From Candidatus Latescibacterota bacterium (lineage in GTDB: Bacteria > Latescibacterota > UBA2968 > GCA-2709665), in assembly GCA_965219455.1 (NCBI GenBank), contig OZ244744.1, positions 192,001-256,000 of the forward strand: a stretch of 64,000 nt of DNA, written 5' to 3'. The notes under the pieces were generated by a model that saw only the letters and a program-made list of their open reading frames with translations, was not told the origin of the DNA and ran no database searches. Below are positions 23,183-31,645 of this stretch, piece after piece. Position 1 is the stretch's first letter. Each line of letters begins with the position of its first letter. The translations under genes were made by a program, and so were the position numbers.

Positions 23183-24235
23183 TTATTTTACCCGCACCGC
23201 CCGCCCGCGACGTACGGACTGGACCTCCTTGAAACAGAGCCGGAGAGCGTCCGCCGCCCGGACCCCGGACAATGCCTCGGCCGGAACCCCTCTCGCCACT
23301 TCATCCACGGCGGCCTGAATCTCCCGGGTAAACGCCACCACCGGGTCTCCCGAACCCAGTCTTGGCTTCCGGACCTTTTTGTCTTCGGTCAGAAGCGTGA
23401 GAGGGGTGGACAGAACCGGCTTATCGCCCAATGTGGCAAACTCGTAAATCAACGTCGCCCTTTCAAGGTAGATTTCGAAACCGTGGGCAAACGCGCGGCC
23501 GGGCTGTGAAATCGCGCCCGAAGCGCAGGTGATGCTCAAGCCCGGCCGGTCGAAGAACCTGTAGCTCGTGCACAAATATTCGGCGTAATGATCGTTAACC
23601 AGCCGACCGGTCGACGATACCTGGTCGGGTACACCGCACAACAGCAGAATATAGTGGGTATCGTGGATGTGCAGATCCACACCCGGCCCTCCGCTCCGTT
23701 CGACGTCGCTGAATTCCGATGACCAGTCGGGTTGGGAGATAATCCGCTTGAAATGCGCGCCCAGAAGCGCTCCGTACTCCCCGCCCTCCACGACCTTCCG
23801 GGCATATGCGAATTCCGGAAAAAACGGCAACACCTGCGCCACCATCAGCGAACGCCCGTAATTTCCCGCCTCCTGAACCATCCGGTCCGCGTCCTTCGGT
23901 TTCAGCGCAATCGGCTTCTCGAGCAACACATGCTTTCCCGCCCGCAGGGCCGCTATGGTCACGTCCCGATGCATCGCCGAGGGCAGGCAGATATTCACAA
24001 GGTCGATTCCAGGATCGGCCAGCAGATCGTCGACCTTCCGGTACGTCCGTATTCCGGACAGATCTTCGATACCTCCGGGTTCCCCGAAATTCCCATGAAT
24101 CCCCCGCCAATCCCCCCTCAGTTTCTTTTCGTCCCGCGTACAGATGGCCGTCACCTTCCCGCCCTTCACTCTTCGGGCGCCGCGATAGTGGGTCATCCCC
24201 ATAAATCCGATGCCGATAATGCCAATGTGTACCAT
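23183..24235 (-). CDS. Gfo/Idh/MocA family oxidoreductase
   Basis: IGIIGIGFMG, GKHVLLEKP and DLHIHD motifs. Confidence 0.93.
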   Translation of the reverse strand: MVHIGIIGIGFMGMTHYRGARRVKGGKVTAICTRDEKKLRGDWRGIHGNFGEPGGIEDLSGIRTYRKVDDLLADPGIDLVNICLPSAMHRDVTIAALRAGKHVLLEKPIALKPKDADRMVQEAGNYGRSLMVAQVLPFFPEFAYARKVVEGGEYGALLGAHFKRIISQPDWSSEFSDVERSGGPGVDLHIHDTHYILLLCGVPDQVSSTGRLVNDHYAEYLCTSYRFFDRPGLSITCASGAISQPGRAFAHGFEIYLERATLIYEFATLGDKPVLSTPLTLLTEDKKVRKPRLGSGDPVVAFTREIQAAVDEVARGVPAEALSGVRAADALRLCFKEVQSVRRGRAVRVK

Positions 24236-24870
24236 AGCGACCCTTCCATTGAAATTCAACGACCGTCCGCAAAACGGACGGCCTGGCGCCCGATCCCGCT
24301 ATTGATTACACGATAACGTGCGCTTGTCGCGATCCTGGCGCCGTCTTGCCCTCATATTTCAGCACAGGCTGGCGCCCGCAAATGCGATATATATTGTCAA
24401 TATAGGCTGAATGGAAAGACGCTGCAAGCGGAAATGGATCGACCGGAATGAGGTCTTCGTTGCATGCGCTGCCCACGTTTGCACCAAGGCATTTCAGCTT
24501 ATTTCGGCGCGTCCCGGCAGTCCGACAAACCGGATTGACCGGGCACTTTCCCACCCGCAAAGCCCTTGCTGCCAGGGCCTGTAAACATCCGGGCGCCAGG
24601 TGATTCCGGCCAATTGCGCATGGATGTCCGTCTTTCGTGGCTTCCGGGCATACAGCCGCTGGCATACGCCTTGCCGCGCAGCCCGGCGGAGTTCCGGAAG
24701 GGTAAAATCGCCCTTGATATGGCGGTAGTTTTCGGTTATTGTTAAGCGATTCGACGCAATTTGCGTCGAATCGGGGAGGCCCGGGCCTGAAACCCCGGCG
24801 ACGTCACGGCATCTAACGCATAAATTACATTGCACTTATTCCCGCGCAGTCCAGCGAAGAGATTTTACCC

Positions 24871-25407
24871 ATGAAATTGAATCGCGTATTGTTTATTATA
24901 TTCTTTGCGATCGCCCTCGGCGACGTTTCCACACATGCCGCCACCGCACCCGACTTCAACCTCCGGAACCTGCAGGGCGAACGGGTCAACCTCAAGACCC
25001 TGCTGGCAAAGGGACCGGTGCTTCTGGATTTCTGGGCGACTTATTGCAAGCCCTGCGTCAAGGCGATGCCCAAGCTTCAGAAGATTCACGAGAAATACGG
25101 CAAATCCGGACTCACGGTTCTTGGCGTCAACGTGGACGGGCCGCGCGGACAGAACCGAGTGAAACCCTTTCTCCGGGCGCGAAAGGTCAGCTTCCCAATC
25201 GCACTCGACTCCGACAGCGCCGTGATGCGGCGGATGCAGGTCAATGTCCTGCCAACCACGCTGTTGATCACGCAGAATGGCAAGATCGCGCTCAGGCAGG
25301 TCGGATACAATTCGAAACATGCCGATGCGTTGTTGGCCGCAGTAGAGTCGCTCTTTTCCAAGCCCGGAGACGACGAGGCAAACGCCGATGCGCGTGCCGA
25401 TAAATAG
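24871..25407 (+). CDS. Exported TlpA/ResA-like thiol-disulfide oxidoreductase
   Basis: Signal peptide, APDFNLRNLQG, LLDFWATYCKPC and LPTTLLI motifs. Confidence 0.92.
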   Translation: MKLNRVLFIIFFAIALGDVSTHAATAPDFNLRNLQGERVNLKTLLAKGPVLLDFWATYCKPCVKAMPKLQKIHEKYGKSGLTVLGVNVDGPRGQNRVKPFLRARKVSFPIALDSDSAVMRRMQVNVLPTTLLITQNGKIALRQVGYNSKHADALLAAVESLFSKPGDDEANADARADK

Positions 25408-26971
25408 ACTGGCGACGCTTTTTCTTGTCCTTATGGCCGACCGCGCCGCAGCACAGGTTACAGCTTCCAGCCTGACCGAACTGCAGCGCGGGCGGGTACC
25501 GGGCGTGGATTCGCTTGCGGTTTCCAACCTTTACGAACAGTTTGATGTCGACTACATCCAGCACGGGATCCAGGCCGGTTTCCGGGCCGAAATTTTCAAC
25601 ACATGGCGCAACATCGGTCCCGGCTCGCGCCTGTCGCAGGTTGAATACCGAGTGGTTCATATTGCCCAGAAGCACCTGCGATGGACAAACGGACCCACCG
25701 AACTGGTTACGGGCAACTACTACGCCATCCTGGGCCGGGGAATCACGCTCAGGGCCTTCGATCTCCCGGGGGTAATACTGGAGAGCGCTCAATACCGGCG
25801 TCGCTATTCGCCATCGCGAGACCTGGAGGGCGGCATGGCCACCTGGGCGGGGCCTCGGGCCGAGGCAAAAGCCCTGATCGGGCGACCCGTATTGAGTGAC
25901 GTTCCGCCTGCGGTGCGGGTGGGTAATCCGCTTCGTGATGTACCGCGACGTGACAACTGGCTTCTCGGAGGCGAAGTCTCGCTGCGGCCTCACAAGCAGA
26001 TCAAGACCGGTGTCACGGCCGTCAGCCATCACGCCTCAAGGTTTGACTCCACCCGAACGTGGTCGGGTTTTCTGGAACTCGACATCACCCCCGCAATTGA
26101 ATCATCCGGCCTTACGGACGCGTTTGCAACCATCTACGCAGAATACGCCGGACTGAATGACGTGCACGTGGAGGGAAGCGCACTCTATATTTCGGCCAAC
26201 GCCGGCATTTCCAACCTGGGCTTGAGCCTGGAATACAAGGATTACGAGAAATTCGCCTTCAATTTCAACGATCCACCATCCCTGGTTCGCGAACACTCGG
26301 CCGTCCTGCTCAACCGGGCCACCCATGCCCTGATTGCCGATACGGAAAAAGGCTATCAGGCGGAAGCCACCTATTCTATTTTCGACCTGGGCACGCTGAC
26401 GGTAAATATAAGCAAGGGTGAGAACGAACTGGCGCCCGGCTTCGCAACCACCTTCAATGAGCGGTATTTCGGCGTGGACATCGACCCCCCGTCTGGTGAT
26501 CGGGGCCGCGCGATATCTACCAACCTGTTCGTCGATTGGGGAAAAAACGAACTGAAGGGGATCCGGAAGCACAGAATCGCTGGCGCGGGAATCGAATCCA
26601 TCACACCCGGCGGATCTGTCGCGGGCTTGGATTTTCAGGTCCGTCGCGCGGCCAGGCTGCCTCGAAATGAGCCGGCGTTTTGGGACGTCTTTACCCAGTT
26701 TTCCTACCAGCATCTCTCGGGCGTGGGTACCGCCCTCGTTCTTGATCGCACCAACGATCCGTTCGAGGTTGACGATGGCGCAACGCCGGACCGGATCGAG
26801 ACCGGGACGCGCACCTGGCTGGCGGTCAATCTCAACGTCGGCTTTCTCGAACGATACGAGGCCCTTATATTCGCCGGCCGCAGGCGAGGCGGCGCCGCGT
26901 GTACTTCGGGTACATGTTATCAGGTGCTGCCATTCAACGGCCTTGAAATGCGTTTCAAAACCCATTTCTGA
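25388..26971 (+). CDS. DUF6029-like putative outer-membrane beta-barrel protein
   Basis: Signal peptide, GNYYAILGRGITLR, EYKDY, NDPPSLVREH, C-terminal RRGGAACTSGTCYQVLPFNG and terminal Phe; family recognised from memory. Confidence 0.72.
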   Translation: MRVPINRLATLFLVLMADRAAAQVTASSLTELQRGRVPGVDSLAVSNLYEQFDVDYIQHGIQAGFRAEIFNTWRNIGPGSRLSQVEYRVVHIAQKHLRWTNGPTELVTGNYYAILGRGITLRAFDLPGVILESAQYRRRYSPSRDLEGGMATWAGPRAEAKALIGRPVLSDVPPAVRVGNPLRDVPRRDNWLLGGEVSLRPHKQIKTGVTAVSHHASRFDSTRTWSGFLELDITPAIESSGLTDAFATIYAEYAGLNDVHVEGSALYISANAGISNLGLSLEYKDYEKFAFNFNDPPSLVREHSAVLLNRATHALIADTEKGYQAEATYSIFDLGTLTVNISKGENELAPGFATTFNERYFGVDIDPPSGDRGRAISTNLFVDWGKNELKGIRKHRIAGAGIESITPGGSVAGLDFQVRRAARLPRNEPAFWDVFTQFSYQHLSGVGTALVLDRTNDPFEVDDGATPDRIETGTRTWLAVNLNVGFLERYEALIFAGRRRGGAACTSGTCYQVLPFNGLEMRFKTHF

Positions 26972-27005
26972 CGCAGACCACACACACTCTCAAGGGAGGA
27001 TTGCC

Positions 27006-27986
27006 ATGAGTCGAATCACTACGTGCGTCTTGTTCCTGCTGGTTCTGGGACTCTACCCCTTTGTACCCGCGCAAGCGCAGGGCGTCGATGACGCGGTACC
27101 GACGTTCTCGCTTACCGGGCTGGATGGGAAGACCTACGCCTCGGCGACCTACAAGGGCAGTGTCCTGGTCCTCTATTACCTGGGCCATAACTGACCCACG
27201 TGCCGGGCGGCGGGTCCGTCCATAGAACAGCAGATCTGGAAGGCGTTCCAGGATGACGGCTTAGCGGTCCTGGGACTTGACATCTACAATGGCAGTCAGG
27301 CTCAACTTAAGGATTTTCAGGCAGTGTCCACGATCACGTTTCCCCTCCTGCTGCAGGCAAGCAATATAAGGGGATCTCACGGGACCCACACTTTGCTGGT
27401 CGCGGACCGGGAAGGAATCGTCCGTCACATCGGGCGTGGCGCTTCCGGTCTCAGCGCCGCGGCCGAGAGCATCCGACAATTACTGACCGTTCCGCCGCCG
27501 GCGATCAATCTTCCGAATACGTCACTCGAATTTGGCGAGGACGTTCCAGCCGGAGAATCCAGAACGCTCACCCTGGTCGTGCAGAATACAGGGGGGGAAG
27601 CCCTCAATATCAGCGACATTCAATCCGATCTCGAGGGGATCTCCATTGATACAACCGAGCTGTTGGTTGCGGCGGGAGACAGCGCGAAGGTCGAAATCAC
27701 CTTCACCCCCACAGAAACCGGCCCCTTCTCCGGCACCCTGACCATTCTGAGCAACGACCCGGAAAACGGCAGCATTATCGTCTCGTTCTCCGGAACGGCC
27801 ATCGTCATCTACGGCGACGCCCGGGCGGATTTCGACGGTGACGGGGAAATCGGATTCAGTGACTTCGTCGCCTTTGCCCAGGCCTTCAACACCGACAACG
27901 CTACCTTCGACCTGAGCGGGAACGGTCTGGTCGACTTCCCGGACTTTCTGGAATTCGCGAAAAACTTCGGCAAACGCCTGCCCTGA
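27006..27986 (+). CDS. Putative secreted selenoprotein: UxxC thioredoxin-fold (AhpC/TSA-TlpA-like) + Ig-like domain + dockerin-like EF-hand pair; 326 aa, Sec63
   Basis: GGGAGGA RBS and ATG27006; in-frame TGA at 27192-27194 in VLYYLGHN-U-PTC; frame continues without a stop into ORF 27324-27986; hairpin follows the TGA. Confidence 0.85.
27205..27221 (+). promoter_or_regulatory. Putative bacterial SECIS element
   Basis: GGGCGG-CGGGT-CCGTCC stem-loop after a 10-nt spacer from the TGA; G at second loop position. Confidence 0.65.
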
Positions 27987-28003
27987 GTTCCGCCGGACTA
28001 TTC

Positions 28004-28041
28004 ACGAAAAAGCCACGCCGAATAAAGCGTGTCTTTTTCGT
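28004..28041 (+). terminator. Rho-independent terminator of the redox operon (possibly bidirectional)
   Basis: ACGAAAAAG-CCACGC...GCGTG-TCTTTTTCGT inverted repeat. Confidence 0.7.
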
Positions 28042-28048
28042 TCCCTAG

Positions 28049-29932
28049 CCCTAAAATAAGCGAGTATCGTGTGCGCCACAGTGATTTGTGTTTGTGTTGA
28101 GGCGTTGGTGTCGATTTATATGGAATTGGCGTTTTGGATGGTTTTTAGGGCCGTGTTTGTCGTGGTCGCTATGGTAAATTGAGTATCCGAAGTGGCGTTG
28201 AGACGCGTGGTGGACACACCGGTCCGTTGAGGGGTGTGGGGATGGCGCCGCGTTTGTGTGTCATCGGTGGTGCTGCATTGGTGTTATCCAAATCCGGTGC
28301 GTTCAATGATACGCCAGGTGCTGAAGAGGCGATCGAGGGTGGGTTGATAGCCGATGAGCCGTAACGTGGTGGTGCGCGCGCGTTGGATGACGTGGCAGGG
28401 AATCAAGATAATGCTGTGGATGAAGCGCCGGAATTCCATGCAGACGTACTGCTGTCGATCACGGTGTCTGTGCATCATCATGGCAAACCAGGATTTGAGG
28501 TTCCAGGCCAGGGCGGCGATGACCATATAGGCCCAGTTGCTGACCAGGTCATACAGGGGCACGCGCAAGGCGTTGACGCCGTTTTTGAGTTGCTCGATGA
28601 CGTTCTCCTGATCGCAGCGTTGGTTGGCGCAGGCGACGATCTCTTGGGGGGTCACGTCCGTGCGTGTCGTGATATAGAAGAAATAACGGCATTCGTCGAA
28701 CAGGACAAGGTCGCCCTTCATTTTGCTGATGTTCTTGCGCAGGACCACGACGCGATACCCACGTTTACAGCGCGTGGGTTGGTAGTTGAACTCGGCCACG
28801 TGTTCGTGGTTCAGCACCAGGTTGGCGTAGGCCCGCTTGTGGACGATGCGCTGTTTCTCGTGGGGCTGATTGCGCTTCCGCTTCTGGTCGGTCACGGTGT
28901 GATAACGGGGTTTGCGTTGCAGGGGCTGCCATTGTGCCTCGTCGAGGGCCTCGGCACGGGAACGCATCGCCGCGTTGGCGTCCATCCCGAAGATGAAGTC
29001 GACGCTTTTGGCCCAGCGATCAAGATGTCGAGTCAAGAAAAAGTCGGTGTCGCCACGCACACAGATGCGCTTGGCGTGGGGCTGCACCAGCGCCAAGGCG
29101 TCGTCGATCCAGGGTGCCGCACCGGTGTGGCTGGGCACATTCCCCGGTCGGTTGACCAGGAAGAGCACTTCCTTCGTGTTGGAAAGTGAGATCACCAGCG
29201 GATGGTAGCCCCAGATGCCCTGGTAAGAGATGTCCATACCCCTCTTGCGCTTGCCATACGTGGGCACGTTTGTGCCGTCCACATCGATATAGGTGATGTC
29301 ACCAAGCAATTTGCGGCCACGCGATGCCCACAAGGAGGATCGCACCGCGTTGATGCACGCCATCAGTTCGACGATGTCCCGTTCCGAGAAGCGTCGGCAA
29401 AAGTCACCCGCCGTGGTCGGATCGGGAATCAACTTGGCGCCCAGGGCATTCATGTAGGCCCCGTCACTTCGCAAACGCTCGATATCCTCCAGGCGCGTGC
29501 CGCCGCATAACACGTTGTATGTGATGTTTAGTACGTGGTCCGACTCATGATAGGGCAGATGCACCTTCAACAAGGACAGTGACGCGTCGATGCGCTTGGG
29601 CAGACCCAGCTTGGTGACCAGGCGATGCACGGCGCCGATGCCTCCGTAACTCATCGCGTCGGTGTAGGCGCCTACCTCGTAGTGCACTTTGCCAGGACTG
29701 AACATGGGCCGGCGCTGGGCCTGCCAATGCCCCGCTCGACCGTGGCGGGCGGCCACTTTGCGTTTGCGACGAGCACGATTCCTGCGGCTGTCATCAACCG
29801 ATATTCTTTTCACCGGAAAGGTCTCCTGCGTTGGAGTGATGATTTCTAGCACAATCCATCTATCTCCAACAACGGTAGGCCTTTCCGGTCTCTTGGACCA
29901 GAAAAATTTCACTGGTCACGCTTGTTTAAGGC
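28049..29932 (-). mobile_element. IS1380-family insertion sequence, 1884 bp, CTAG target duplication
   Basis: CTAG at 28045-28048 and 29933-29936; imperfect 16-bp IRs CCCTAAAATAAGCGAG / GCCTTAAACAAGCGTG. Confidence 0.85.
28284..29813 (-). CDS. IS1380-family DDE transposase
   Basis: HLPYHESDH, IPDPTTAGDFCRRF, IDVDGT, VRGDTDF and QRCDQENVIEQLKNG; GTG29813 behind AGGAG. Confidence 0.92.
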   Translation of the reverse strand: MKRISVDDSRRNRARRKRKVAARHGRAGHWQAQRRPMFSPGKVHYEVGAYTDAMSYGGIGAVHRLVTKLGLPKRIDASLSLLKVHLPYHESDHVLNITYNVLCGGTRLEDIERLRSDGAYMNALGAKLIPDPTTAGDFCRRFSERDIVELMACINAVRSSLWASRGRKLLGDITYIDVDGTNVPTYGKRKRGMDISYQGIWGYHPLVISLSNTKEVLFLVNRPGNVPSHTGAAPWIDDALALVQPHAKRICVRGDTDFFLTRHLDRWAKSVDFIFGMDANAAMRSRAEALDEAQWQPLQRKPRYHTVTDQKRKRNQPHEKQRIVHKRAYANLVLNHEHVAEFNYQPTRCKRGYRVVVLRKNISKMKGDLVLFDECRYFFYITTRTDVTPQEIVACANQRCDQENVIEQLKNGVNALRVPLYDLVSNWAYMVIAALAWNLKSWFAMMMHRHRDRQQYVCMEFRRFIHSIILIPCHVIQRARTTTLRLIGYQPTLDRLFSTWRIIERTGFG

Positions 29933-30220
29933 CTAGCTTGAGTGACATTGGTCGTCCATCTTCTATCCGGCACGGCTGAACAGGTACCAATCGAAGGCTC
30001 GATTCAATATTCCGAGTCCGGTTTTTCAGAAACCGAACCGATTTATCCAGCGTCTAATAATACAGATAGACAATACACCATCCCAATTCCAGACTCTTAG
30101 CCCGGGGTGACCGGGAACTCTGCGCCGGGCAGAGGGGCAGAAGACGTTCACGGTGGATTGCGTCGTAAAAACAGCGAAGCCCACTGCTCCATTGTTTCTG
30201 CAAATTCAGGATTTCCACCC

Positions 30221-31645
30221 ATGGAACCTCACACCGGACCCAATTCCGGTACACGTGACCTGCTTCCGGCCGTGCGTTCATACATTGACCGGCACGAAAT
30301 GATCCGGCCCGGCGACGGGATCGTGATCGGCGTATCGGGAGGTCAGGACTCGGTATCGCTGCTGGATGTGCTATACCGGCTTCGGAAGCCTCTCGATATC
30401 ACGCTCTACGTCGCCCACCTCAACCATCAACTCAGGGGCCCGGCGTCCGATGAGGACCAACAATTCGTAACGGATCTCGCCGCCTCTATGGATCTGCCGT
30501 GCTTCTCCGAAAAAGCAGTCCTGCCCGAACGGGGCTCTCCTGAAGGGGCGGCCCGAGAAGCGCGCTTCGGATTCCTCAAACGGGTAATACGCGTGACCAG
30601 CGCTTCCCTGATCGCAATGGGCCATACCCGCAGCGATCAGGCCGAAACCGTATTGATGCGCTTGATTCGCGGCGCAGGTCCAACCGGACTCGGGGCGATC
30701 CGCCCGATCCGTGATGGCCTCTGGATCCGCCCCCTCCTGGCGGTCTCGCGACAACAGATACAGGCTTATGTCGAACACCGAAACCTGCAGGTGCGCCACG
30801 ACAATACCAACGCCGACACGCGCTTCCTTCGGAACCGGATCCGGCATCATCTCCTGCCCGAGATCGCGTCAGATTACAACCCCGCAATCGAAGCGGCCCT
30901 GGCCAGGTCCGCGGTAATCATCCAGGGGGAGGATCAACTGCTCGGTCAGCTGGCTGAATCGGCTTACCGAAAGGCCCTGCGTTACGAAGGCAGACGAAAA
31001 ATAATCCTTGATGAAAACGCCGTTTTCGGTTATCATATAGCACTTCAACGCCGAATCTACAAAACGGCTTTTTTTCGGCTTCGTGGCTGCGCGCGGGCGT
31101 TTGATGAGCAGAGCGTCAGTCGCATGGAAACCCTGCGTCTGACACCTGCAGGCGCGGTTCAGGTGTCTTCCGATATCTCTATTCATCGTTCGAGCCCATG
31201 GCTGATTCTTAGTCGGCCAACGCCGTCGTTTGAGACCGAAGTCGCCGTTCCGGGCGTCACCTCAATACCGGAGATCGACGCGGTTCTGGAGACGAGCATC
31301 CGGCCTGCCGGCCAGATGCGAAAGCACGATCTATCGTCCGATCCACATCGCGCCTGCTTCGACTGGGACGCGCTTCCCGGCGGTCTGACCCTGAGGAATC
31401 GGCGCACGGCGGATCGTTTCAGACCTTTCGGCCTGAACGGAACACAAAAGATAAGCGACCTGTTTATCAACCTCAAGATTCCCAGGCCGCTGCGTGACGA
31501 AATTCCCCTGCTCTTGGGCGGACAGGCCATCCTCTGGGTGGTCGGCTTGCGTACGGCCCAGTCCACGGCCGTCACGCATCGGGCGAAGACGGTGCTGGAC
31601 GTCACCTTCAAGGGTGGTTGGGGAGGCGTTATCGCCTCCTCTTAA
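30221..31645 (+). CDS. tilS: tRNA(Ile)-lysidine synthase
   Basis: VSGGQDS, HLNHQLRG, GHTRSDQAET, IRPLL and RNRIRH motifs; TilS C-terminal domain. Confidence 0.96.
   Translation: MEPHTGPNSGTRDLLPAVRSYIDRHEMIRPGDGIVIGVSGGQDSVSLLDVLYRLRKPLDITLYVAHLNHQLRGPASDEDQQFVTDLAASMDLPCFSEKAVLPERGSPEGAAREARFGFLKRVIRVTSASLIAMGHTRSDQAETVLMRLIRGAGPTGLGAIRPIRDGLWIRPLLAVSRQQIQAYVEHRNLQVRHDNTNADTRFLRNRIRHHLLPEIASDYNPAIEAALARSAVIIQGEDQLLGQLAESAYRKALRYEGRRKIILDENAVFGYHIALQRRIYKTAFFRLRGCARAFDEQSVSRMETLRLTPAGAVQVSSDISIHRSSPWLILSRPTPSFETEVAVPGVTSIPEIDAVLETSIRPAGQMRKHDLSSDPHRACFDWDALPGGLTLRNRRTADRFRPFGLNGTQKISDLFINLKIPRPLRDEIPLLLGGQAILWVVGLRTAQSTAVTHRAKTVLDVTFKGGWGGVIASS

Follow-up and report, generated by a model that had tools for sequence, protein, structure and literature searches.

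A stretch of 64,000 nucleotides from the genome of a Candidatus Latescibacterota bacterium (GenBank assembly GCA_965219455.1, contig OZ244744.1, positions 192,001 to 256,000 of the forward strand), referred to here as the window and numbered from its first base, carries a cassette of three plus-strand genes. Open reading frame (ORF) calls give the order as a gene for a TlpA-like thiol:disulfide oxidoreductase, a gene for an outer-membrane beta-barrel of the DUF6029 family, and a gene for a redoxin with a UxxC motif, in which U is selenocysteine (Sec). Adjacency of a TlpA-type gene and the barrel gene is near-universal in related loci, and the two proteins are predicted to form a complex in which the first fills the lumen of the second as a plug. 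The cassette may constitute an outer-membrane thiol/selenol redox module that supplies redoxins at the cell surface, a reading put forward tentatively and at somewhat less than even chances.

The three-gene pattern is beyond chance: the in-frame TGA falls in the column of the first Cys of a CxxC motif, and the cysteine pair of the barrel and the adjacency of the genes recur in more than 200 loci. Literature searches combining TlpA, barrel, thioredoxin and outer membrane, and searches on selenoproteins, returned no description of such a module. As far as these searches reach, the TlpA-barrel-redoxin module and its predicted plug-in-barrel form are undescribed, and even the minimal result, that TlpA and barrel genes form a near-obligate pair whose products are predicted to assemble as plug and barrel, is new against this literature.

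The TlpA-like protein and its barrel partner

Three sets of loci were compared. Set 1 comprises 75 loci, mostly from Latescibacterota with some from Eisenbacteria, Gemmatimonadota, KSB1 and Cytophagia; set 2 comprises 59 loci from Zixibacteria, Ignavibacteria, KSB1, Calditrichota, Gemmatimonadota and Bacteroidota; and set 3 comprises 80 Bacteroidota loci, cultured species included. A TlpA-type gene stands beside the barrel gene in every locus of set 1 (75/75): in 52 it precedes the barrel gene on the same strand and in 23 the two diverge, and the distance between them ranges from -54 to 628 nt (median 51 nt). It lies directly upstream in 57/59 loci of set 2, scoring above 115 bits against a hidden Markov model (HMM) of the orthologues, with one further locus lacking upstream DNA and one lacking TlpA, and in 74/80 loci of set 3, where five loci lack upstream DNA and one lacks TlpA. 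Pooled, 206 of the 208 informative loci have a TlpA-type gene next to the barrel gene, which answers in the affirmative a prediction from the sequence-only reading, an earlier note made on the window's letters without database searches, that homologues of the barrel would keep company with redoxins. Cultured Bacteroidota that carry the module include Flavobacterium, Carboxylicivirga, Labilibacter and Saccharicrinis, and the hypothesis is therefore directly testable. Among informative loci, only L106 and L172 have no TlpA-type gene next to the barrel; downstream of the barrel these carry an Omp28-dockerin protein and a redoxin with a type IX secretion system (T9SS) tail, respectively. In Flavobacterium glaciei (L165, 1186-3353), the redoxin-TlpA-barrel genes are immediately preceded, on their own strand, by genes for a response regulator and a histidine kinase.

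The TlpA-like protein has a hydrophobic N-terminal export signal and the active site FWATYCKPC (Y-C59-K-P-C62). It is matched above cut-off by the Pfam families AhpC-TSA (87.6 bits, 7.9e-25), Redoxin (77 bits, 1.7e-21) and Thioredoxin_8 (52.5 bits), and in an alignment of 26 orthologues D53, F54, W55, T57, C59, P61, C62 and P128 are invariant, so that both a [W/Y]-C-x-P-C active site and a conserved cis-Pro loop are found. Its top NCBIfam matches are the ResA, StoA, TlpA and DsbE models, all below cut-off. As it falls short of every equivalog or subfamily threshold (ResA, 106.8 against 170 bits; TlpA, 52.5 against 230; DsbE, 41.6 against 123), it is called TlpA-like and not an orthologue of a named enzyme. 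One DsbD_TM gene is found in the genome and is a candidate electron source.

The barrel protein begins with a signal peptide and ends in ...RRRGGAACTSGTCYQVLPFNGLEMRFKTHF, the terminal residue being F527; a terminal F is found in 95 of 146 cluster representatives of its homologues. Pfam DUF6029 (PF19494) scores 47.1 bits on it (cut-off 27), with an alignment confined to positions 60-126 of the 538-position profile, and is found in 64/65 barrel homologues. The proposal that this is a DUF6029 protein thus holds above the gathering score, and the weakness of the matches marks the window's clade as a divergent branch of the family. A profile of the barrel family matches at least 1565 clusters at E <= 0.001. 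The structure model, built on an alignment of 36 homologues, is all beta, with a predicted local distance difference test (pLDDT) score of 87.2 and a predicted template modelling (pTM) score of 0.81. In a VIA-align search, which is independent of sequence alignment and was used for ranking fold matches, the top hits are the pores of the ushers FimD (Z 18.9, root-mean-square deviation 4.8, 362 residues) and PapC (Z 17.9, root-mean-square deviation 5.5, 373 residues). With this confident model and these usher-pore matches, the earlier claim of a beta-barrel is borne out. Other matches include Wzi (Z 13.5), MtrB (6r2q_B, Z 13.2) and TonB-dependent receptors, with generic barrels scoring the same as or above Wzi; Foldseek against the PDB returns generic barrels only, at template modelling (TM) scores of 0.3-0.5. 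The model is consistent with about 24 membrane strands when DSSP strands are counted from both termini and short turns are taken as periplasmic.

The last two strands are extra long (490-506 and 509-526), and the cysteine pair lies at the tip of the hairpin that they form. Near the pair, DSSP gives strands 502-506 and 509-513 with a turn at 507-508 (S507-G508), so that C505 (codon 26900-26902) stands opposite C510 (codon 26915-26917). From strand parity and contact lists in the model we infer the topology of the barrel and the side of the membrane that this cysteine finger faces. The motif CxxGxC is invariant in 36/36 aligned homologues, down to 24% identity, and is present in 130 of the 146 cluster representatives, those without it being mostly truncated and one lacking both cysteines; the median number of cysteines among these representatives is two per protein. 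It is likewise present in all loci of sets 1 and 2 with an aligned C-terminus (129/129) and in all aligned tails of set 3 (41/41). The pair is therefore conserved, as the sequence-only reading needed it to be. A second conserved feature is the polar loop NDPPSLVREH...LLNR.TH, in which H303 and H313 are nearly invariant.

Complex prediction was carried out on barrel residues 23-527 and TlpA residues 24-170 with separate alignments, in three runs and with three controls. The interaction prediction score from aligned errors (ipSAE) is 0.76, 0.84 and 0.82 for the TlpA-barrel pair and 0.00 for the best of the three controls; the pass mark for this score is reached by 58/80 solved complexes and 2/110 mismatched pairs, a calibration only roughly valid for alignments of our own making. 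Partner pLDDT is at least 82 and contact agreement at least 85% across the TlpA-barrel runs, and the interface comprises 147-178 contacts. On the barrel, the contacts fall on almost every strand at its periplasmic end, on loop 111-128, on 295-304 (the conserved NDPPSLVREH loop) and on the tip of the last hairpin (506-508); on the TlpA-like protein they fall on residues 24-43, 56-60 (A-T-Y-C59-K), 63-64, 67, 88-105, 114-126 and 142-153. The TlpA-like protein is accordingly predicted to plug the lumen, with its active-site region against the tip of the cysteine hairpin, while three loops, the cysteine finger among them, fold inward and contact it from above. The two redoxins had earlier been imagined docked on opposite faces of the barrel; the TlpA half of this docking passes strongly, with the protein placed inside the lumen and not merely on the periplasmic face. 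We know of no solved complex of this plug-in-barrel TlpA kind that the predictor could have memorised.

The selenoprotein redoxin and other tethered partners

The third gene starts at an ATG (27006) that lies 34 nt past the barrel-gene stop and is preceded by GGGAGG, reads through one in-frame TGA in the motif ...LGHN-U-PTC..., and stops at 27984-27986. Its product consists of a signal peptide, a redoxin domain (~aa 27-146), an immunoglobulin (Ig)-like domain (~aa 163-265) and a dockerin-like tail (~aa 270-326). Pfam recognises the redoxin, an Ig-like ASH/DUF1573 domain and an EF-hand-like tail; NCBIfam gives choice-of-anchor D (choice_anch_D) and a weak GC-type dockerin match, and no NCBIfam selenoprotein model scores above its cut-off on this protein. 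Among 59 tblastn redoxin-domain hits that span the motif in the 75 related loci, the U63 column holds TGA in 50 and TGC or TGT in 9, and similarity persists on either side of it.

A hairpin lies between about +13 and +31 from the UGA in 44/44 distinct Sec sequences, with stems that vary by lineage and a mean energy of -8.35 kcal/mol, against -5.09 kcal/mol for 8 Cys forms. Across 21 sequences of the window's clade there is no variation, even at third codon positions, in bases +18, +20 to +23 and +25 to +29, while +19 is G or A and +24 is A in one row. The five-pair stem is paired in 89.5% of cells, against 30-47% when the partners are slid. Covariation is weak in this close clade (one compensatory pair) because the stem hardly varies. 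The fold of the 75 nt after the TGA is not better than that of shuffled sequences (z = 0.59), and the local hairpin was used instead; an Rfam search of 24000-29000 with E up to 1 gave no match, so no curated selenocysteine insertion sequence (SECIS) family covers it. The G-U in the hairpin loop may hold a position like that in the fdhF element of E. coli.

The genome, a single 5.84-Mb contig, encodes SelA (481 bits), SelB (366.6 bits), SelD (359.8 bits) and tRNA-Sec. Together, the TGA/Cys column, the hairpin and this machinery argue strongly that the third gene encodes a selenoprotein, as had been called earlier from its U-P-T-C motif. Taken alone it is ordinary, a UxxC redoxin selenoprotein of a class already listed in Table 1 of PMC13188914. 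The selA, selB and tRNA-Sec genes are adjacent, with tRNA-Sec beside selB (genome positions C1:4374337-4377632 and C1:3407174-3408097 are listed for Sec genes), and selD, elsewhere in the genome, has an in-frame TGA of its own. The redoxin gene is tandemly duplicated in L014, L015, L018, L043, L039 and L042, as two or three copies, every one of which has a TGA or Cys of its own, and the Ig-like domain is doubled in L012 and L017.

The second redoxins of the loci carry different tethers in different lineages. In KSB1-like, Saccharicrinis and Prolixibacteraceae loci they end in the T9SS domain Por_Secre_tail (L067, L076, L078, L152, L142 and L172), in Zixibacteria and Ignavibacteria they have a lipobox followed by PEGA repeats, and in the window's clade they have one or two Ig-like domains and a dockerin-like tail of ~55 aa. 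Copies of this tail (window 27814-27983) occur in 91 further places of the genome, most of them at the end of a long open frame (up to 3115 aa), and Por_Secre_tail matches in the same genome are few, which suggests that the tail may be a lineage-specific sorting or anchoring tag in use alongside a few T9SS tails. Surface exposure of the window's selenoprotein would follow only indirectly, from the T9SS sorting domains of its orthologues, in place of which it has a dockerin-like tail.

A second redoxin lies within 4 kb of the barrel in 49/75 loci of set 1, and genomes with a barrel locus lacking it encode TGA-containing homologues elsewhere in 5/5 cases. Across 151 genomes of the phylum, barrel and redoxin are both present in 83, the barrel only in 2, the redoxin only in 12 and neither in 54, counts that overstate independence, as the sampled genomes are relatives, and that serve as a descriptive table only. 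Set 2 (L085-L141) has further thiol proteins upstream of the TlpA gene: Omp28/DUF1223-like CxxC proteins in 35/59 loci, and T9SS cargo proteins of small size that bear a CxxxC or CxxxxC pair in 42/59, the latter possibly relatives of PorA. Neither PorA-like nor Omp28-like genes occur in set 1 (0/75), the window's cassette included. In Zixibacteria the small Cys-pair protein ends in a membrane helix, not a T9SS tail.

All three genes are covered by contigs from RNA libraries, which stem from two metatranscriptome studies of sponges. One contig is identical to the window over 27138-27317, TGA included, and another of 3115 nt, from a related strain, spans 24770-27878; these contigs speak for presence in RNA libraries only, and not for a single transcript or for reading through the UGA. 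The anatomy of the cassette itself is summarised in Table 1. The 20 nt overlap between the TlpA-like and barrel genes, the gap before the third gene, the thiol/selenol motifs and the downstream terminator, all described in the sequence-only reading, were reproduced from the sequence.

Table 1. Features of the TlpA-barrel-selenoprotein cassette, in window coordinates.
Feature	Position	Strand	Basis
TlpA-like periplasmic thiol:disulfide oxidoreductase, 178 aa	24871..25407	+	ORF, Pfam, NCBIfam, orthologue alignment
DUF6029-family outer-membrane beta-barrel, 527 aa	25388..26971	+	ORF, Pfam, structure model, fold matches
Codons of C505-T-S-G-T-C510 (CxxGxC), tip of last beta-hairpin	26900..26917	+	Alignment, DSSP
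UxxC selenoprotein redoxin, 326 aa	27006..27986	+	Translation with TGA=U, Pfam, NCBIfam, orthologue alignment
In-frame TGA read as selenocysteine (U63)	27192..27194	+	Homologue column, Sec machinery in genome
SECIS-like hairpin, six-pair stem and CGGGU loop, +14 to +30 from U of UGA	27205..27221	+	Folding, conservation
Terminator-like hairpin (28014-28031), then T run; closes three-gene unit	28014..28041	+	Hairpin prediction

The cassette is flanked by genes for a MocA-type oxidoreductase (on the opposite strand), a DDE transposase and TilS. The transposase gene (DDE_Tnp_1_4, 132.7 bits; 28284-29912, minus strand) lies between the selenoprotein gene and tilS (30107-31645) and looks like an insertion, since tilS is directly 3' of the cassette in syntenic loci. 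Elsewhere in the window, an open frame of 485 aa, Gly/Arg-rich in stretches close to the N-terminus, is not matched by any Pfam family (21528-22985, plus strand), and neighbouring genes for tRNA-Ala(TGC) and tRNA-Ile(GAT) form the usual spacer of an rRNA operon (16968-17141, minus strand).

A possible route for reducing power, and its rivals

In the proposed mechanism, the TlpA-like reductase would be exported to the periplasm and kept reduced by the single DsbD/CcdA-type membrane protein of the genome. It would insert as a plug into the lumen of the ~24-strand barrel, where the cysteine finger and two other conserved loops would reach in and contact it, and its CxxC would exchange with C505 and C510. 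The finger could then hand electrons to redoxins tethered at or outside the outer membrane, in the window the UxxC selenoprotein, whose Ig-like spacer and dockerin-like tail would mark it as part of the exported, anchored proteome. With its selenol it would react fast, as a nucleophile, with disulfides or oxidised targets at the surface of the cell. The mechanism draws its support from the TlpA adjacency, the invariance of CxxGxC, the complex score, the tethers of the partners, the co-occurrence of barrel and redoxin, the DsbD_TM gene and the RNA contigs. The relay that had been guessed from the sequence alone, from TlpA through the cysteines of the barrel to a surface Sec redoxin, stands in part: barrel fold, conserved cysteine pair, TlpA adjacency and TlpA docking all speak for it, and nothing that it had named as contradicting it was found (a middle protein that is not a barrel, a cysteine pair that is not conserved or is buried and structural, or redoxins rare among the neighbours). 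As to the remainder of the relay, we only infer by which path and in which direction electrons flow, that the window's selenoprotein is at the surface, and what it acts on.

Several observations weigh against the redox module. C505 and C510 are opposed on a tight hairpin, as they would be in a purely structural disulfide; the interface list has residues 506-508, not C505 or C510, and the distance from TlpA C59 to the pair follows from strand parity and contact lists of the model only. By hand comparison, about 13 of 64 conserved barrel columns are among the ~90 interface residues, with no clear enrichment. A plug that faces the lumen cannot be re-reduced by DsbD unless it leaves the barrel. 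Pfam gives no match to PF18962 (Por_Secre_tail) on the window's selenoprotein, whose passage of the outer membrane is thus unproven; in set 1, 26/75 loci are without a second redoxin within 4 kb; and the kinship of the sampled genomes, noted above, tells on the co-occurrence counts.

The same 26 pairs with no adjacent second redoxin would also suit a catalytic or redox-gated channel, in which the TlpA-like protein is the removable plug of a large pore, CxxC and finger cysteines reduce or sense passing solutes that bear disulfides or react with thiols (for example, cystine, oxidised peptides, polysulfides, selenium or metal species), and the tethered redoxins act on the same substrates without electrons running through the barrel. 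The predicted plug-in-barrel shape resembles that of plugged transport barrels, as the usher and TonB-dependent receptor matches show, and the conserved polar loop could be a binding site. However, in the 32 loci scanned with Pfam no transporter, TonB-box or enzyme related to a substrate recurs; the recurrent neighbours are instead Cys/Sec-pair proteins with surface tethers, and such a channel seems unlikely. The hairpin geometry, for its part, fits a structural disulfide, and the barrel may be no conduit at all but a dedicated client of the TlpA-like protein, its pair being reduced during biogenesis (for example, for metal binding) or proof-read as a structural disulfide, with the predicted lumen complex an artefact of modelling. 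TlpA-family proteins do have dedicated clients, such as ScoI and CoxB for TlpA, and H303 and H313, both nearly invariant, may serve to complete a metal site. A complex score that is strong and specific, with controls at 0.00, argues against this; the client reading also leaves the regular presence of further tethered redoxins unexplained, and no copper chaperone genes turned up in the loci scanned with Pfam. We regard a mere client as quite improbable.

That the best fold matches are the 24-strand translocation pores of ushers (Z 18.9 and 17.9), and that the neighbours are exported, tethered proteins, could point to an export or anchoring pore, translocating or anchoring the neighbouring Cys/Sec-pair proteins. 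The TlpA-like protein would then be both plug and holdase-reductase, and transient mixed disulfides at the finger would act as a Mia40-like ratchet. Only a small chance is given to this, as many of the partners have T9SS sorting domains and hence a translocon already available, chaperone or pilin-like genes are lacking, and a lumen filled by TlpA leaves no path unless TlpA leaves. Finally, in PMC9603273 a polysaccharide role is suggested after Wzi-barrel-only homologues were reported to be similar to DUF6029 by HHpred, and Wzi is among the fold matches (Z 13.5); DUF6029 might on these grounds be a Wzi-like barrel for capsule or exopolysaccharide, with its redoxin neighbours incidental. But the 32 loci scanned with Pfam contain no OPX, Wza or Wzz family, generic barrels equal or exceed Wzi in fold score, and TlpA adjacency in 206/208 loci would go unexplained, so that the chance of a polysaccharide porin is close to negligible.

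The redox module would address the problem of how proteins beyond the outer membrane, where there is no NADPH-linked reductant, stay reduced. If real, it would be a new class of envelope machine linking periplasmic reducing power to surface redoxins, it would account for exported selenoproteins in these phyla, and DUF6029 would gain a function. A bolder version, held with more doubt than the module itself, is that this is the first thiol/selenol electron conduit across a bacterial outer membrane, running from a TlpA plug through a mobile cysteine finger to Sec or Cys redoxins at the surface. Seen this way, it would correspond in sulfur/selenium chemistry to the Mtr porin-cytochrome complexes and, at the outer membrane, to DsbD, and would be conserved across the whole Fibrobacterota-Chlorobiota-Bacteroidota (FCB) superphylum.

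Comparison with known systems

The third gene has its nearest likeness in the UxxC Prx-like, redoxin and thiol-disulfide isomerase-like selenoproteins listed in PMC13188914, with which it shares a redoxin fold and Sec at the first Cys of CxxC. Unlike those listed, it has an Ig-like domain and a dockerin-like tail and lies inside a TlpA-barrel cassette. For the set-2 loci, in which TlpA-barrel pairs are preceded by Omp28-like and small Cys-pair proteins, the parallel is PG2172-PG2175 of Porphyromonas gingivalis: PG2172 is PorA, with Cys92 and Cys96 (PMC12152298), PG2173 is Omp28 and PG2175 a thioredoxin-domain protein in outer-membrane vesicles (both in PMC13744359), and PG_2174 appears in PMC4335976 as an uncharacterised vesicle protein. 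The window's cassette differs in having no PorA-like or Omp28-like gene.

Barrels that carry plugs are known from ushers, TonB-dependent receptors and LptDE, where the plug is provided in trans. FimD and PapC are the top fold matches of the DUF6029 barrel; unlike them, the 527-aa protein is all barrel, without the N- and C-terminal or internal plug domains of ushers, and there are no chaperone or pilin genes nearby. As in LptD-LptE, the lumen is predicted to be filled in trans by a globular domain, here of ~150 residues. In contrast to plug-and-barrel proteins in general, there is no TonB box, no lipopolysaccharide (LPS) or pilus genes lie nearby, and the plug is a redox enzyme.

With the DsbD/CcdA to TlpA and ResA/CcmG cascades the module shares an exported thioredoxin-fold CxxC protein, encoded in a genome with a DsbD_TM protein. 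The constant partner of that protein is, however, an outer-membrane barrel and not a cytochrome c, Sco or Cox protein, and we know of no periplasmic reducing cascade that reaches into or beyond the outer membrane. The porin-cytochrome conduits of the MtrCAB type do cross it, and the predicted arrangement resembles theirs in that a periplasmic redox protein would sit inside a large barrel and face a redox protein at the surface; MtrB is itself a fold match (Z 13.2). The three proteins of the window have neither cytochrome families nor haem (CxxCH) motifs. Where MtrCAB relies on hopping from haem to haem, the exchange here would be between thiols and selenols, and the barrel itself would take part through its redox-capable Cys pair.

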